Below the pieces are notes generated by a model. The model had not been told where the DNA came from and searched no databases. It saw nothing but the letters and a program-made list of their open reading frames with translations. 64,000 nt of DNA, from sequence record PQ351811, one strand, 5' to 3'. The translations under genes were made by a program, and so were the position numbers. Below are positions 3,019 through 11,039 of the stretch, one piece after another. Positions within the stretch are counted from its first letter, which is position 1; each line of letters opens with the position of its first letter. The DNA is from Shigella phage SSG23.

Positions 3019-3289
3019 CAAGGAAGACCGCCTGATTTATGCGCTGGCTGTTATCCTAGAAAAAGAATTACCGGATCTTGAGGTAGTCTTTACTGACAGA
3101 CCAGTAGGCCAACGTTACGGCGGATATGATAGCCTAGTTTATCCTTCATATAGCCTTGAAATGTGGGTAGAAGATTTTAAAAACCTGGCTGATACATCTA
3201 AACCGCTTTATCTATGGGATGTTGAGTATAATTGCGATCCTAACTGGCCTGGTATTAATGTTTATGCGTCTATGACTTTGAAGGTGTGA
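2951..3289 (+). CDS. hypothetical protein (start uncertain)
   Basis: Track ORF in +1 frame overlapping upstream ORF by 68 nt; no SD at annotated start; AAGGAAG at 3020-3026. Confidence 0.3.
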   Translation: MKMWRYLLVNQKNQLTTVLRQRNKEDRLIYALAVILEKELPDLEVVFTDRPVGQRYGGYDSLVYPSYSLEMWVEDFKNLADTSKPLYLWDVEYNCDPNWPGINVYASMTLKV

Positions 3290-3291
3290 TA

Positions 3292-3450
3292 ATGATTGAA
3301 CAAATGTTAACTGCAACGGTAATGGCTTTCTGTATGGTTGTTGTTATGATTGCAATGATCCCTAAAGAGAGAATGAGTCTTCTTGTCGCTGTCTGTGTGG
3401 GTGTTGTTTGCGGATGGTTTGGAATCGCTTTAGAACAAGCTCTGCGTTGA
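3292..3450 (+). CDS. small membrane protein (52 aa)
   Basis: ATG 2 nt after upstream stop; highly hydrophobic; below track cutoff. Confidence 0.4.
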   Translation: MIEQMLTATVMAFCMVVVMIAMIPKERMSLLVAVCVGVVCGWFGIALEQALR

Positions 3451-3511
3451 TTAACAAAGCGGGTAGGGGAATGTACTACCCGCACTAAATTAGCTAACTG
3501 GAGGGCTTTCT

Positions 3512-3700
3512 ATGGCGTTTTATCTATGGTTGATTATAGTATGCTTTGTGCTGGGGTTGTGCTTCTATACTGGCGTATTCTGTTTGATTGGCTGGATAAA
3601 CGGAGGATTCTCTAGTATCATTTTGCTTGCCGGATCAATCGCCTCGTTTCTGTTGATATGGCTTTTTTCTTATTTGTTTGGTGAATGGGATTTATTATGA
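3512..3700 (+). CDS. small membrane protein
   Basis: Track ORF; SD GGAGGG upstream; hydrophobic. Confidence 0.5.
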   Translation: MAFYLWLIIVCFVLGLCFYTGVFCLIGWINGGFSSIILLAGSIASFLLIWLFSYLFGEWDLL

Positions 3701-3876
3701 ACAAATATATGTTTTGGGCGATCCTTGCCTATGTTGTGATTGCGGTAGTCTGGGGACTCTGTGTTATTGTCGCTTCCCTGATCTGGTGGGAATCACTTGG
3801 CGTGGGTTGCTTGATTAGTGGTGCATCCTCTCTTATTATGGGTGTGATTGTTGGGTTTCTTGTGTCGGGGGATTGA
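3697..3876 (+). CDS. small membrane protein
   Basis: Track ORF 3685..3876; ATG 3697 in ATGA overlap with upstream stop; hydrophobic. Confidence 0.5.
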   Translation: MNKYMFWAILAYVVIAVVWGLCVIVASLIWWESLGVGCLISGASSLIMGVIVGFLVSGD

Positions 3877-3878
3877 CA

Positions 3879-4094
3879 ATGGTTTTCTTCGGTCTTATTA
3901 TAATGGTGCTTAATGTCATTTGTGGCGTTGCTATGTTAGCTATGGCCTTTACTGTTCCTATGTCTGTTGATAGCGCCGCATCCGTAGGCGTGTTGGGAAT
4001 TGTAAACCTGTTTACCGCCCTAGCATGTTGGATCACCGGACGAGATGAGGTAATGTATTACTTTTATAAACGTAAACAGAGAAAAGGAAAATAA
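3879..4094 (+). CDS. small membrane protein
   Basis: Track ORF 3873..4094 (TTG); first ATG at 3879; hydrophobic. Confidence 0.5.
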   Translation: MVFFGLIIMVLNVICGVAMLAMAFTVPMSVDSAASVGVLGIVNLFTALACWITGRDEVMYYFYKRKQRKGK

Positions 4095-4095
4095 T

Positions 4096-4287
4096 ATGAG
4101 ATTTGCATTTGGTTTTACCGTGATGTTGATTATTGCTCTGAGTATGTGTACCGGAATGCTTGTATTTGGTCTTGCAAACGGATTTAGCATTTATAATGAT
4201 CCGTGGGTTGATTGGGGGATGGTTGCTGTTAATGCGATCCTGATTGGTGCTAATACAAGAACTCTATGCAGGATCACAGGAATCTAA
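4096..4287 (+). CDS. small membrane protein
   Basis: Track ORF; SD AAAGGAAAA upstream; hydrophobic. Confidence 0.5.
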   Translation: MRFAFGFTVMLIIALSMCTGMLVFGLANGFSIYNDPWVDWGMVAVNAILIGANTRTLCRITGI

Positions 4288-4315: not shown

Positions 4316-4705
4316 ATGTTTAAATTATCTAAAAGAAGCAAAGATCGGCTTGTTGGCGTACATCCAGACCTGGTAAAAGTCGTTCATCGTGCATTAGAAC
4401 TGACTCCGGTCGATTTTGGTATTACGGAAGGTGTGCGTAGTCTAGAAACGCAAAAGAAATATGTTGCGGAAGGTAAATCTAAGACTATGAAATCTCGTCA
4501 TCTTCACGGTTTCGCGGTTGACGTTGTAGCGTATCCTAAAGATAAGGATACATGGAACATGAAATATTACCGCATGATCGCTGATGCATTTAAACAAGCT
4601 GGTCGAGAATTGGGTGTTCCTGTTGAATGGGGTGGAGATTGGACCAGTTTCAAAGATGGTCCTCATCTACAATTGCCACACAGCAAATACCCAGATCCAA
4701 AATAA
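4316..4705 (+). CDS. peptidase M15-type endolysin (L-alanyl-D-glutamate peptidase / VanY-like)
   Basis: SRHLHGFAVDV (SxHxxGxAxD zinc motif) and C-terminal DGPHLQL His; SD AAAGGGGGTG; sits where T4 has lysozyme e. Confidence 0.8.
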   Translation: MFKLSKRSKDRLVGVHPDLVKVVHRALELTPVDFGITEGVRSLETQKKYVAEGKSKTMKSRHLHGFAVDVVAYPKDKDTWNMKYYRMIADAFKQAGRELGVPVEWGGDWTSFKDGPHLQLPHSKYPDPK

Positions 4706-6613: not shown

Positions 6614-6808
6614 ATGCAAGTTTATACCAATAGCAATAAAGGACAAGATATTACGCCCGGAAAGATGTATGATTTTACCCCGGCACGAGACGACGAAAAT
6701 CCACCGACAATCGGTTACATCAAAGATGATATAGGTTATCGTATTACGATACTTCTTGATGGTGGATGTTCTCATCTTCGCGGTGATAAATGGGAGTTAG
6801 TACCATGA
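6614..6808 (+). CDS. small protein, tandem paralog 1
   Basis: Track ORF; shares GK(M/L)Y.FTP...GYIKDD.GY motif with next ORF. Confidence 0.5.
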   Translation: MQVYTNSNKGQDITPGKMYDFTPARDDENPPTIGYIKDDIGYRITILLDGGCSHLRGDKWELVP

Positions 6809-7050
6809 TGTATGTTATGACACCTTATAGTAGTAGATCTTACATCACCCCAAATAAACTGTATAAGTTTACGCCAGATGAAAGAATGTCTACCTACGGT
6901 TACATCAAAGATGATAAAGGATACGAACTTTTTATTTCTCTGAAAAGTTGTGCATACCTTGATGACCGTCCGTGGACACTGATCGAAAAACCAAAACAAC
7001 CTGAGAATAAAGGTCTTTGGAATGTGCTAAAAAAATTCTTGAAAAAGTAG
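6805..7050 (+). CDS. small protein, tandem paralog 2
   Basis: Track ORF 6790..7050, ATG 6805 after GGGAG SD; paralog of 6614 ORF. Confidence 0.5.
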   Translation: MMYVMTPYSSRSYITPNKLYKFTPDERMSTYGYIKDDKGYELFISLKSCAYLDDRPWTLIEKPKQPENKGLWNVLKKFLKK

Positions 7051-7079
7051 TTGACAGCATGAAACGGGGGTAGTAATAT
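7051..7079 (+). promoter_or_regulatory. sigma70-like early promoter (PeSL-like cassette)
   Basis: TTGACA-17-TAATAT with inverted repeat GGGGGTA/TACCCCC; conserved CATCGAAAC leader. Confidence 0.65.
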
Positions 7080-7110
7080 ACCCCCATCGAAACAACAACG
7101 GAGTATTAAA

Positions 7111-7449
7111 ATGAGTGTTAAAGAAGTGTTTGTTTATACCGACTATGACGGGTGCGCCTATATCACCGCCGGAAAACTTTACCGATGTGAAATTATTCAT
7201 GGTACATTAGGTCGAATTATGTGCGATCCGGTTACAAAATTGTGGAAAAGCAATCCTAGTGAGCGAGAAACTCTTATTAACCTAGATCCAGACGGTTGTT
7301 CACATTTGGACTATAGAAAATGGCATATCGTGACACATGATGCTTATGGTATTCATCTTGCTACTAAAGAATTAACTATAGAGAAATTCAAGTTTAAAGA
7401 AATCCCGTTTGTATACTGGCTTCGCAATTTGTTCAAGAAAGGAGAATAA
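7111..7449 (+). CDS. small protein, tandem paralog 3
   Basis: Track ORF after promoter; GKLY....DPDGCSHLDYRKW resembles paralogs 1 and 2. Confidence 0.55.
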   Translation: MSVKEVFVYTDYDGCAYITAGKLYRCEIIHGTLGRIMCDPVTKLWKSNPSERETLINLDPDGCSHLDYRKWHIVTHDAYGIHLATKELTIEKFKFKEIPFVYWLRNLFKKGE

Positions 7450-7450
7450 A

Positions 7451-7873
7451 ATGGAAACAATTAATGTACATGTTCGTCGTAGCAAGCTGCGTCGATTCTT
7501 CGAAACTGAAATGCGCAAAACTAATGCACAGATCAAAGAAAAGTGCTTGAATGATGGTTACGGTGAGTATATTTTCATTCGCTTTAGTCCGCATATGATC
7601 GACCGTCTAACCGATCGTCATATCGATGAACATAAGACAATGGAACTATTCAATAAGGTAGAAACTCGTTTACCTGAGATCTTCAAGTTCTTGAAAATGG
7701 AAGACCGACCTAACCGACTAGAAATCACTGACGGTAACATGTGGATCGGGATGACAGTAGATCTAATCGAAGACGGTAAACCGTATTACGGGCTATGCTG
7801 CCGAATGATTATAGAGAATCCAAAGCGACTGGCGGGTAAAATGTCGGCGGTTGTTTTGAAAGTGGACCAATAA
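7451..7873 (+). CDS. regB: RegB-like site-specific endoribonuclease
   Basis: METINVHVRRSKLRRFFE..RLEITDGNMWIGMTV..CRMIIENPKRLAGK matches remembered T4 RegB; SD AAGGAG. Confidence 0.75.
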   Translation: METINVHVRRSKLRRFFETEMRKTNAQIKEKCLNDGYGEYIFIRFSPHMIDRLTDRHIDEHKTMELFNKVETRLPEIFKFLKMEDRPNRLEITDGNMWIGMTVDLIEDGKPYYGLCCRMIIENPKRLAGKMSAVVLKVDQ

Positions 7874-7894
7874 TGGAAATTGGTTAAATTAATG

Positions 7895-7924
7895 CTTGAC
7901 TTTCTGGTGATAGGGCTATATTAT
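7895..7924 (+). promoter_or_regulatory. sigma70-like promoter
   Basis: TTGACT, 17/18-bp spacer, TATTAT upstream of 7959 ORF. Confidence 0.5.
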
Positions 7925-7958
7925 GGAATCAGAAAGTTAAGCCAAACAGGAGAAATTG

Positions 7959-8549
7959 ATGTTAAAAGTTCTAAAAGCGATAGTATTGAGTCTGTCACTA
8001 GCCGTTGGTGCTACACACGCATCGACTAGCGCACCGATCAAAAAAGCGCCGATAGACAACTTTACAGCACACCAACTAGATAATTTACATTTCGCCTATC
8101 AATACGGTGAGCAATTCGAGAAAAGCGGTAAGTTGAAAAATGACCATCCGAATATTCGCTATAACGGAAAGGGTTTAGGTCACATCCTGGCGGGTATCGC
8201 ATGGCAAGAATCAAGCGCGGGTGCAAACTTAGCACCAAAGAAAAATCATCATGCTTATGGATTATTTCAAAATTACCTTAAAACGGTGAAAGCGAAAAAT
8301 GCAAAGCGCGGTGTTAAAATGAGTGATCGCCAGACTATCAACTTTATCATGAATCGCGAGGTTTCTGCATTCTACGCGATGGATGAGTTAGCATACTGGC
8401 TGGATGTTCGAAACGGTAATATTCGACTCGCGCTAGCTTCTTACAATGCAGGATGGAACTATAAAGCCGGGTTAGGTTATGCTGATGACGTACTAAAAAA
8501 GGCTAACCATCTAAAGAGTAAAGGCATTCTTAAAACTAAACGCTATTGA
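7959..8549 (+). CDS. secreted soluble lytic transglycosylase (SLT domain) with signal peptide
   Basis: N-terminal signal peptide MLKVLKAIVLSLSLAVGATHA; SLT motifs AWQESS, GLFQ, SYNAG. Confidence 0.75.
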   Translation: MLKVLKAIVLSLSLAVGATHASTSAPIKKAPIDNFTAHQLDNLHFAYQYGEQFEKSGKLKNDHPNIRYNGKGLGHILAGIAWQESSAGANLAPKKNHHAYGLFQNYLKTVKAKNAKRGVKMSDRQTINFIMNREVSAFYAMDELAYWLDVRNGNIRLALASYNAGWNYKAGLGYADDVLKKANHLKSKGILKTKRY

Positions 8550-8556
8550 GGAATCT

Positions 8557-8916
8557 ATGAAAAAGTTGACAGTAATTGCTATGATTGCTATGATGCTCTC
8601 GGCTGGTGCGCTTGCTAGTAATGAGCGCCCTTATCCAAAGTTCGAATACAAAGGGTTTGAGATCAACAAAAAGATCATTAAAACCTTCTGTGATAATGAT
8701 AACATGTGTAGCGATTTTATCGCACTTGAACTTGACGAAGCGTACAAACAAGGTCGAGACGAAAAACGAAAAAATCGAGCGTGGGATCTAAGTATTGCCA
8801 GCTTTGCTAAAACAAAACGTAACTTGTGTGATACTGCCCCGGATAAGCAATTGTGTTTTGCATATCGTGACACACTGTTAAGCCGTTTTATGGCTGGGTT
8901 GTCTTCCCGTGACTAA
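8557..8916 (+). CDS. secreted/periplasmic small Cys-containing protein
   Basis: Signal peptide MKKLTVIAMIAMMLSAGALA; four Cys; no lipobox. Confidence 0.55.
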   Translation: MKKLTVIAMIAMMLSAGALASNERPYPKFEYKGFEINKKIIKTFCDNDNMCSDFIALELDEAYKQGRDEKRKNRAWDLSIASFAKTKRNLCDTAPDKQLCFAYRDTLLSRFMAGLSSRD

Positions 8917-8931
8917 TTAGAGGTTTATATT

Positions 8932-9387
8932 ATGATTATTGATACTGTAAAGGGCGATCTCATCGCCCTGTTTAAACAAGGAAACGGTCATTTAATTCAT
9001 GGTTGTAATTGTTTTCATACTATGGGCGCTGGTATTGCTGCGGATATCGCAAAAGAGTTCCCGCAAGCGTTAGAGATTGACAAGCAAACTTCTCGCGGTA
9101 AGGTAGAAAAGCTGGGTGGGTTTAGTGTCTGGACGCATCAAGTTAATGGTTATAACTGGTGTGGGGTGAATCTCTATACCCAATTCCGACCGGGTCCAAA
9201 TGCTGAATATAGTGCTATCCTGAAAGGATTTGAGTCTCTCAATGATGTTTTTGAAGGTGCTATACAGCCTTTCTATATTCCTAAAATCGGTTGCGGTATC
9301 GGTGGCCTTGAGTGGGAATGCGTAGAAGAAATCATTAATATTGCTACTCCAGATATCAATATTGTGGTGGTTGAATATGGCAAATAA
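8932..9387 (+). CDS. macro domain protein, TARG1/DarG-like
   Basis: Motifs HGCNCFHTMGAGIA and IPKIGCGIGGLEWE match TARG1-type macro domain signature; GAGG-TTTATATTATG start. Confidence 0.75.
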   Translation: MIIDTVKGDLIALFKQGNGHLIHGCNCFHTMGAGIAADIAKEFPQALEIDKQTSRGKVEKLGGFSVWTHQVNGYNWCGVNLYTQFRPGPNAEYSAILKGFESLNDVFEGAIQPFYIPKIGCGIGGLEWECVEEIINIATPDINIVVVEYGK

Positions 9388-9571
9388 AAATGATCTATAT
9401 TCCGGCGATTGGGTTAAACGTCAGACTGTAGAAAACGTAACTTGTTTTCGTTGTTTCACTGAATACAATATAAAAACCGCTCCTGTTAGTGTTCCAAAGA
9501 CAGACGGGTATTATATTAAAGAACCGCATTGCCCTAAATGTAAATGTCGATTATATTGGAGTCATCTATGA
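9377..9571 (+). CDS. small Cys-rich (zinc-ribbon-like) protein
   Basis: Track ORF 9341..9571, ATG 9377; CFRC...CPKCKC. Confidence 0.5.
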   Translation: MANKNDLYSGDWVKRQTVENVTCFRCFTEYNIKTAPVSVPKTDGYYIKEPHCPKCKCRLYWSHL

Positions 9572-9786
9572 AGAAGCCTAATACCGCTCACATGAAGGAA
9601 AACTGCCGATGTGGTAGATGTGGTTGGCCTATTATCTTCACTTGCTGTAACGACGATATGCAGCGTTTACCGTGGGGAATGTGGGATTGGTGGATGTATT
9701 GCAGCAATAAAGGATGTATTCACCATGAAGGCGAAGGAGTGTTTCAAGAAACGCCTGATTGGGTGGAGGTGATAGAAAATGCTTGA
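9568..9786 (+). CDS. small Cys-rich protein
   Basis: Track ORF 9544..9786, ATG 9568 after GGAG; CRCGRCGW..CCND..C..C. Confidence 0.5.
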   Translation: MKKPNTAHMKENCRCGRCGWPIIFTCCNDDMQRLPWGMWDWWMYCSNKGCIHHEGEGVFQETPDWVEVIENA

Positions 9787-10072
9787 GACTATCATTAACC
9801 TTGTTATGTGGACTTTTAATTTCGTTATTGTTATTATTGCGGGTATTGAGATCGTCAAGCAATATCTGTTACAATCCAGAAATAAACATGTTGTAATTGA
9901 TATGGATTCTCAAGGAAATAAGCTGATCCTGCTAGAAGACGGTCGGGAATATTGGGTAGGTTATCCAAAGACACTACGCGGATTTATCTTTGCTATGGGT
10001 GTTTGCTTCTTTTTCCTTTGTATCTGGGTTTATGTTGGTTTAGGTCTTGCTGGATTTTTGGAGATTAATTAA
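9779..10072 (+). CDS. small membrane protein
   Basis: Track ORF; two hydrophobic segments. Confidence 0.5.
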   Translation: MLETIINLVMWTFNFVIVIIAGIEIVKQYLLQSRNKHVVIDMDSQGNKLILLEDGREYWVGYPKTLRGFIFAMGVCFFFLCIWVYVGLGLAGFLEIN

Positions 10073-10668
10073 TGGCTCAACTATATTTCTACTATGCATC
10101 TATGAACGCTGGCAAATCAACTTCCCTGCTACAAAGTGCTTATAACTATACCGAACGTGATATGCGAGTATTAATTCTTAAACCAGCGATTGATAATCGT
10201 GATTCAGATAGTGAAGTTGTTTCCCGAATTGGTCTAAGTGCTCCAGCGATCACCTTCACTAAATCGGATGATCTTTTCGATTTGGTTTATCGTGAATCAC
10301 TGGGTAAGCGTAGACCAGATCGCTGGCGTCCTGATGCTGTATTTGTAGATGAAGCCCAATTTATGACTAAAGAACATGTTTTAGGCTTATGTGCACTGGT
10401 TGATGATGCCAATATCCCTGTTTTGTGCTATGGCCTTCGCACTGACTTTAAAGGCAATCTATTTGAGGGATCTGCGGCATTAATGGCATTGGCTGATAAA
10501 CTGGTTGAAATGAAGGGTATTTGTCATTGCGGTAAGAAAGCAACTATGGTCCTTCGCGTAGATAAAGATGGTAATGTTATTCGCGATGGTGCTCAAATAG
10601 AAGTTGGTGCAGAGGATAAATATGTTTCTGTGTGCCGTAAACATTTTATTGACGGAACTACCAACTAA
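10072..10668 (+). CDS. tk: thymidine kinase
   Basis: Walker A ASMNAGKST, DEAQF, C-terminal Zn Cys cluster CHCGKKAT...CRKHF. Confidence 0.9.
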   Translation: MAQLYFYYASMNAGKSTSLLQSAYNYTERDMRVLILKPAIDNRDSDSEVVSRIGLSAPAITFTKSDDLFDLVYRESLGKRRPDRWRPDAVFVDEAQFMTKEHVLGLCALVDDANIPVLCYGLRTDFKGNLFEGSAALMALADKLVEMKGICHCGKKATMVLRVDKDGNVIRDGAQIEVGAEDKYVSVCRKHFIDGTTN

Positions 10669-10736: not shown

Positions 10737-11039
10737 ATGTCATTTATTCGTAAAACTCTAACAGCGGCAATATGCTTGACTGCGGTCGGAAGTGTCAGTG
10801 CTGATCAATATGATCCAACTGGTGACTTTACTGATTATTTCGACGGTGCAATGATAGTATATGTAAACAAAATATCTCCTTCCATTGAAACCAGCCAGAA
10901 ATTTCATGCCCATATTATGAAGATGTATGCTCGTAGTAAATGTATGGATTCTAAGCAGTGTTTTATTATGGGGGAATATGCCGCAAAACAATTTGTTATG
11001 TTGTATAATGTGGAGAATCGAGAACATGAAATTCAGTGA
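10737..11039 (+). CDS. rI: RI-like periplasmic antiholin
   Basis: Signal/anchor sequence; C-terminal Y..S.C.DS.QC...GEYAAKQF resembles remembered T4 RI; adjacent to tk as in T4. Confidence 0.6.
   Translation: MSFIRKTLTAAICLTAVGSVSADQYDPTGDFTDYFDGAMIVYVNKISPSIETSQKFHAHIMKMYARSKCMDSKQCFIMGEYAAKQFVMLYNVENREHEIQ

Follow-up and report, generated by a model that had tools for sequence, protein, structure and literature searches.

The vs.1 and vs genes of Shigella phage SSG23 (sequence record PQ351811; the 64,000-nucleotide stretch analysed is referred to as the window) are adjacent on the plus strand and encode a predicted periplasmic lytic transglycosylase of the SLT/GH23 type and a small four-cysteine protein, respectively. 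The first open reading frame (ORF; 7959..8549, ATG at 7959, TGA stop, AGGAG at 7948-7952) encodes a 196 amino acid (aa) precursor and is the orthologue of T4 vs.1, with 52% identity to T4 Vs.1 (P13311; E=1e-55); the second (8557..8916, ATG at 8557, TAA stop) encodes a 119 aa precursor and is the orthologue of T4 vs, the 'valyl-tRNA synthetase modifier' (PF26829/phrog_1256), with 26% identity to T4 Vs (P13310) and all four cysteines aligned. The order endolysin ... regB, vs.1, vs, tk.4, (small ORFs), tk, rI is common to the window, the RB49 RefSeq record and T4, and the RB49 record annotates the same two coding sequences (RB49p093/RB49p092). The window is that of an RB49-like T4-type phage (Krischvirus); the 3-kb region from 7000 to 10000 is 100% identical to Shigella phage SFHK24 and shares 95.7-97.5% identity with RB49 and with dozens of further genomes of Krischvirus (Straboviridae). 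A sequence-only reading of the window had singled out this pair as an exported transglycosylase beside a small secreted cysteine protein; the observation itself holds, though that reading did not recognize the known T4 genes vs.1 and vs, the smaller of which carries a conflicting valyl-tRNA synthetase (ValRS) modifier annotation.

Vs.1 contains the motifs AWQ-E84-S-S, Y-G-L-F-Q (residues 100-104) and S-Y-N-A-G-W (residues 161-166), with the codon of the predicted catalytic Glu84 at 8208-8210 on the plus strand; it scores 26.2 bits against Pfam SLT (PF01464; curated cutoff 21.3, E=6.2e-6) and matches phrog_600, a family without an assigned function (E=6e-60). Residues E84, S86, Y100, G101, F103, Q104, S161, Y162, A164 and G165 are invariant in an alignment of 20 sequences; Glu84, Tyr162 and Gly165 stay invariant in 58/58 unique relatives, down to ~25% identity, with Ser or Thr at position 85 in all 58 and the E-S motif in 57 of them. 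The AlphaFold2 (AF2) model of the protein (pLDDT 84.6, pTM 0.77) has a GH23-type, goose-lysozyme-like α-helical fold, in which Glu84 lies at the C-terminal end of helix 74-85; its best Foldseek matches in the PDB are Pseudomonas aeruginosa MltD and Slt, a GH23 chitinase, Escherichia coli MltE and Campylobacter Cj0843 (probability 0.85-1.0, E 1e-2 to 0.9, TMq 0.41-0.48). No PDB chain matched Vs.1 by sequence, even with a profile search. By its motifs, profile match and predicted fold, Vs.1 is classed as a family-1 (SLT/GH23) lytic transglycosylase. The enzyme is not new: publications of 2003 and 2006 already noted that vs.1 resembles SLT, the later one (Nolan et al. 2006, PMC1524935) in six T4-like phages and with citation of earlier T4 PSI-BLAST results. 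Reviews of T4 muralytic enzymes continue to name just two such genes, e and 5 (PMC7650644). A pattern scan of 185,579 bacterial and archaeal genomes, its sensitivity limited to two peptide patterns, returned no Vs.1 relatives. The copy in Klebsiella phage KPV15 (locus L005, 1902-2423) is annotated at just 120 aa (2061-2423), and its longest ORF starts with MALCSTAFGS and has no signal-peptide n-region; this could reflect a problem of start codon or annotation, or an N-terminally truncated copy.

The mature Vs of the window, after the predicted cleavage, is a protein of ~99 aa and ~11.6 kDa. The precursor matches phrog_1256, 'valyl tRNA synthetase modifier', at E=3.9e-33, and PF26829 is carried by a database copy (P0001) that is 100% identical to it. 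Its cysteines C45, C51, C91 and C100 (plus-strand codons at 8689-8691, 8707-8709, 8827-8829 and 8854-8856) are invariant in relatives. The AF2 model (39 sequences, pLDDT 76) features four helices, 34-45, 49-71, 76-88 and 97-115, with C45 and C51 flanking the first hairpin loop (H1-H2) and C91 and C100 flanking the third (H3-H4); among relatives the loops vary in length, C-x5-9-C and C-x8-16-C, as expected of disulfide staples. No informative structural match was found for the predicted four-helix fold. Only phages supplied members of this small family: a 16-member profile, run by word index against 5.8 billion proteins, gave 46 proteins, all PF26829, and HMMER, run exhaustively on 1.84 billion representatives, gave just 20 clusters, all of the same phage family, and no bacterial relatives hinting at a function. 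A Pfam scan of 16 diverse members (E<=10) gave scattered single chance matches only. Between the window and T4, Vs (29.5% identity in this comparison) has diverged much as the periplasmic protein RI has (25.3%) and far faster than RegB, Vs.1, Tk.4 and Tk (45-55%). Full-length T4 Vs with an N-terminal His tag formed inclusion bodies, insoluble in the cytoplasm (PMC8076793), an indirect sign that the protein may be exported.

Both proteins have an N-terminus with the n/h/c layout of a signal peptide. The predicted Sec signal peptide of Vs.1 spans residues 1-21 (7959..8021 on the plus strand; THA/STS cleavage inferred) and reads MLKVLKAIVLSLSLAVGATHA/STSAP, with the SLT domain next; its parts are K3 and K6, the core AIVLSLSLAVGA and the site T-H-A/S. 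That of Vs spans residues 1-20 (8557..8616, plus strand; ALA/SNE cleavage inferred) and reads MKKLTVIAMIAMMLSAGALA/SNERP, with K2 and K3, the core LTVIAMIAMMLSAGALA and the site A-L-A/S. The N-termini of the T4 proteins are of like type, MRKALLAGLLAISMMAHS/SEH in Vs.1 and MTKILVLCIGLISFSASASA/DTS in Vs, and the hydrophobic segment is kept across the 20-sequence alignment of Vs.1. A crude rule, which asks for K/R in the n-region, a stretch of >=8 uncharged residues, >=6 of them strongly hydrophobic, and a small residue at both -3 and -1, called a signal peptide in 38/38 unique relatives of Vs, in 51/59 of those of Vs.1 and in 8.6% of the remaining ORFs of these loci; by appearance, the eight Vs.1 failures are mostly mis-called starts (upstream extensions) or truncated ORFs. 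Every distant Vs member combines an N-terminal signal sequence with four cysteines. In the metagenomic homologue P0073 a lipobox (LIVFALSGC; LSGC) replaces the signal-peptidase-I site, and this protein would be a lipid-anchored version of Vs; a lipobox is also present in one Vs.1 relative, a lipoprotein variant. A signal-anchor-release reading of both N-termini was rejected because hydrophobic cores of 12-17 residues followed by A-x-A-type sites are typical of cleavable signal peptides. That Vs.1 and Vs both bear features of Sec-exported proteins is therefore supported at the level of sequence. The earlier description of the 7959 ORF (signal peptide, E-S, GLFQ, SYNAG) is borne out on each point, and so are its descriptions of the adjoining 119 aa protein, with its own signal peptide and four cysteines, and of the contrast with the M15 endolysin at 4316-4705, which has no hydrophobic N-terminal segment and matches Peptidase_M15_4 and a PHROG endolysin family.

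The two genes are closely joined: the vs.1 stop codon TGA (8547-8549) overlaps the vs Shine-Dalgarno sequence GAGGA (8548-8552) ahead of the ATG at 8557 (junction 8547..8559, plus strand), which suggests translational coupling. The intergenic gap is 7 nt in the window, whereas in T4 the genes overlap by 8 nt. Among loci collected with Vs.1 as seed (69 from IMG/VR, five reference loci and the window), Vs is present in 44, in every case directly downstream of vs.1; in the loci collected with Vs as seed, Vs.1 lies immediately upstream in 27/27. Taken together, vs starts between -8 and +8 nt from the vs.1 stop in 71/71 loci that hold it, and the pair is kept across the sampled enterobacterial, Acinetobacter and Pseudomonas T4-type phages. 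The pairs of T4 and RB49 are like that of the window in gene order, signal-type N-termini, catalytic motif and the four cysteines, with nothing essential different; peculiar to the window with respect to T4 are a gap of 85 nt between regB and vs.1, with a candidate promoter in it, and a longer linker behind the Vs.1 signal peptide. This candidate, TTGACT-17-TATTAT (7896..7924, plus strand), is of σ70 type and matches the consensus at 10/12 positions; it could drive early transcription of vs.1-vs, but is a candidate only, as σ70-type matches in the region do not exceed the shuffled expectation in number. At 8881-8905, within the final codons of vs, a terminator-like hairpin with a T-run (AGCCGTTTTATGGCT GGGTTGTCTT) could attenuate transcription after the unit; sites of this kind are no more frequent in the region than expected by chance.

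In T4, the RNAs of vs and vs.1 are early and both proteins have been detected (PMC9697503 supplement). A transposon screen, HIDEN-SEQ (10.1101/2025.11.20.689424), classes both genes as non-essential, with 30/32 TA sites hit in vs and 46/52 in vs.1; when growth on M9 glucose is compared with LB, vs is the most depleted gene (log2 fold change -2.19, adjusted p about 0), and vs.1 moves in the same direction (-0.87, p=0.0055, adjusted 0.155). A clean T4 vs deletion forms poor plaques on M9 in the same study. Mean insertion counts in LB were 26.6 for vs and 22.6 for vs.1, compared to 179 for regB, 290 for tk.4 and 652 for vs.3; the two genes share a fitness signature, with ~10-fold fewer LB insertions than their neighbours. 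A simple toxin-antidote logic, in which Vs merely neutralizes Vs.1, is disfavoured because in LB insertions are depleted from vs.1 to the same degree as from vs; polarity could also account for the vs.1 depletion. The earlier suggestion of an enzyme plus modulator is reasonable, because Vs is a strictly co-inherited, apparently translationally coupled small cysteine protein beside an ORF with transglycosylase features.

From the gene identity, motifs, predicted fold, export-type N-termini and strict adjacency we infer a model that extends to actual export and cleavage, disulfide formation, enzyme activity, physical interaction and a biological role. On balance it is considered probable, with little more than even confidence, that vs.1-vs is an early, translationally coupled periplasmic module made of a lytic transglycosylase and its dedicated partner. 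Transcription of the unit probably precedes replication, and the two genes are probably coupled in translation; both products would be made with cleavable Sec signal peptides and would act in the periplasm with no need of a holin. Mature Vs.1 (~19.7 kDa, pI ~9.9) is predicted to be a single-domain enzyme, whose Glu84 would cut the MurNAc-GlcNAc bond of the host peptidoglycan and leave 1,6-anhydroMurNAc ends. Mature Vs is predicted to consist of two helical hairpins, each probably stapled by a disulfide (C45-C51 and C91-C100), and would therefore need the oxidising periplasm; it may serve Vs.1 as a regulator, a targeting factor or a stabiliser. The pair would remodel the cell wall during infection, a function that is non-essential but relevant to fitness, especially in slow-growing cells.

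Several points weigh against this model. The Foldseek E-values of Vs.1 are modest, ~1e-2 at best; the depletion of vs.1 insertions could be explained as polarity on vs, and the minimal-medium phenotype of T4 vs fits a role in aminoacylation too. The four cysteines of Vs appear to sit at one end of the predicted bundle, so that they might be ligands of a metal in a cytoplasmic protein instead. Vs was absent from the Ackermannviridae, Felixounavirus, Aeromonas and Vibrio examples inspected and from distant IMG/VR loci; most Vs.1 relatives are without it. Above all, work by Neidhardt, Marchin, McClain and Mueller from 1966 to 1980 reportedly tied the vs locus to a ~10-kDa peptide (tau) that is said to bind the cytoplasmic ValRS and to stabilise a temperature-sensitive ValRS in vivo; ValRS binding requires Vs to be cytoplasmic, provided that the assignment of the ORF is right. 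The favoured periplasmic module does not explain the ValRS-modifier label, which would be either a second activity or a historical mis-assignment of gene to ORF. T4 Vs has a mass of 13.1 kDa as the precursor and 11.0 kDa after the predicted cleavage; the ~10-kDa size of tau thus fits the processed protein, which sharpens the paradox.

The classical view, in which Vs is the tau factor that binds host ValRS in the cytoplasm, is a serious rival, though considered somewhat unlikely; the Vs N-terminus would be unused for export, or only part of the pool would be exported, the adjacency to vs.1 would be mere synteny, and Vs.1 would be an independent accessory muralytic enzyme. The view draws on the annotation carried by all records, on a plaque defect of the vs deletion that is specific to minimal medium, in which amino acids are in limited supply, on the stronger M9 effect of vs than of vs.1, and on the closeness of the mature mass to that of tau. 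However, a processed 11-kDa tau would have been handled by Sec and so be expected beyond the cytoplasm, and the view does not sit well with the signal-peptide-like N-terminus in all 38 Vs relatives and the lipobox variant, the four invariant cysteines, a vs start codon that in all 71 loci is no more than 8 nt away from where the gene of an exported enzyme ends, or the quick divergence of a protein whose supposed target is highly conserved. The predicted topology of Vs (signal peptide, four cysteines, lipobox variant) argues against a cytoplasmic location. A bolder proposal can be put forward only tentatively, with confidence short of even: Vs would be a Sec-exported, disulfide-stapled partner of Vs.1 and not a cytoplasmic translation factor, the classical phenotype would have been mis-assigned to the ORF or be secondary or artefactual, and the need for vs in minimal medium would be an envelope phenotype of a third T4 peptidoglycan-cleaving system besides gp5 and gp e.

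It is improbable that the pair is a lysis accessory, with Vs.1 as a secreted auxiliary or back-up endolysin that weakens the wall in advance and Vs restraining it until lysis in the manner of an antiholin. In two distant contigs (L047 and L048) a Vs.1-like gene directly precedes an i-spanin/o-spanin-like pair, in Felixounavirus JH2 one lies between rIIA/rIIB and an Rz-like spanin, and the module of the window lies between the M15 endolysin and the rI antiholin; these placements are set against expression that is early and not late, complete lysis cassettes that T4-type phages already own, the many Vs.1 relatives without Vs, and T4 vs.1 insertions that are not neutral, which is unexpected if Vs only neutralized Vs.1. 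A role in superinfection exclusion or injection-site repair, which the sequence-only reading had proposed, is very unlikely: early expression and periplasmic location do parallel T4 Spackle and Imm, but nothing in the analysis points to such a role, Vs resembles neither Spackle nor RI in sequence or fold, it is not obvious how an enzyme that cleaves glycans would bring about repair or exclusion, and the T4 fitness phenotypes come from competitive growth of a mutant library in LB and M9 and not from a superinfection assay.

While the vs.1-vs pair and its SLT assignment are already known, the export features of Vs seem not to have been discussed against its cytoplasmic label. The T4 pair is early and relevant to fitness; the mismatch of annotation and sequence in Vs, its absolute coupling to the gene of an exported enzyme and the new minimal-medium phenotype make it worth following. 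If both proteins are periplasmic, T4-type phages own a third peptidoglycan-cleaving activity, active from the start of infection, and a 50-year-old label copied into hundreds of phage genomes needs revision; if the classical function holds, Vs is unusual in having a canonical signal peptide and yet a cytoplasmic enzyme as its target. With its clean plaque phenotype on M9 glucose, T4 vs now opens the matter to a direct test.

Small, Sec-exported 'specialised' family-1 lytic transglycosylases include VirB1, IpgF/IagB, P19 of plasmid R1 and EtgA. These and the catalytic domains of MltE/EmtA, Slt70 and MltD are similar to Vs.1 in having a signal peptide or lipobox, one SLT domain of ~150-180 aa, the E-S, G-L-x-Q and Y-N-x-G motifs and the GH23 fold; the Vs.1 pair differs from the specialised enzymes in being phage-encoded and early-expressed with no secretion-system context, and is distant in sequence. 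In concept, Vs may be likened to the inhibitor in T4 Spackle (gp61.3)/gp5 lysozyme and to Ivy, PliC and MliC, as a small, signal-peptide-bearing, disulfide-containing periplasmic controller of a muramidase, features that for Vs are predicted. Spackle faces an incoming virion enzyme, whereas Vs would face a co-expressed one; Ivy works through a short loop closed by a disulfide, and Vs is comparable in having C-x5-7-C loops at the tips of its hairpins. Vs has no sequence or fold similarity to Spackle, Ivy, PliC or MliC, and its inhibition of an enzyme is hypothetical; similarity to a known Spackle-like, Ivy-like or LprI-like family of muramidase inhibitors was not detected. T4 RI, too, is small, helical and periplasmic (for Vs, by prediction), evolves fast, has a pair of conserved cysteines and is encoded in the same early cluster; however, RI has one Cys pair and Vs two, and the profile-profile likeness is confined to the signal peptides, so that kinship of Vs with the RI antiholin (PF24205) was rejected (hhalign probability 2.4%).

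The family of Vs.1 is wider than that of Vs, with ~2000 phage records that include Ackermannviridae, Felixounavirus and Vibrio and Aeromonas phages. The Vs.1-like proteins of the groups without Vs have a signal peptide or lipobox and 3-4 cysteines of their own; Cys content was compared as a discriminator between Vs.1 with and without Vs, with no clean difference. In the IMG/VR contigs L047 (2842-4183; 183 kb) and L048 (2929-4227; 166 kb), the distant exported SLT gene is followed by a protein with a transmembrane segment plus coiled coil and an overlapping lipoprotein (LAGC / LGSC); this i-spanin/o-spanin-like pair suggests that the SLT protein there is the secreted endolysin of a lysis cassette. 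In Escherichia phage JH2 (L103, 2438-2986), the Vs.1-like exported SLT protein has 3 Cys and is encoded immediately after rIIA-rIIB, ~1.2 kb before the Rz-like spanin. The Kuttervirus homologue (L104, 2399-3016), with 4 Cys, is overlapped by the next ORF, of 212 aa and without known function. Aeromonas-type T4-like phages have vs.1 and no vs; an exported protein of 140-146 aa occupies the Vs position, just before tk.4, in L037 (3871-4311), L043 (4118-4558), L044 (4384-4806) and L049 (4088-4528), and was not detected as a Vs relative. It begins MKKSIA...YGC, with a lipobox, in three loci and MKKLVLASILSISFSAFA, with no lipobox, in L044.

Around the pair in the window, regB lies at 7448-7873, tk at 10072-10668 and the rI antiholin gene at 10737-11039; directly 3' of vs is the T4 tk.4 orthologue, a macro-domain gene (8932-9387), which a 2025 preprint (10.1101/2025.11.20.689424) names AdfM, an anti-DarTG2 factor. 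Upstream of regB are three tandem, paralogue-like small ORFs (6614-6808, 6790-7050 and 7111-7449), hypothetical in RB49, with common motifs of the form ITPGKMYDFTP / ITPNKLYKFTP / ITAGKLYRCE and ...GYIKDD.GY... / ...DGGCSHL..KW.... Directly upstream of the M15 endolysin, at 3286-4287, five consecutive small ORFs (54, 62, 63, 73 and 63 aa), each hydrophobic over nearly its whole length, are 'hypothetical' in RB49 (RB49p103-107) and may encode membrane or lysis-related proteins.

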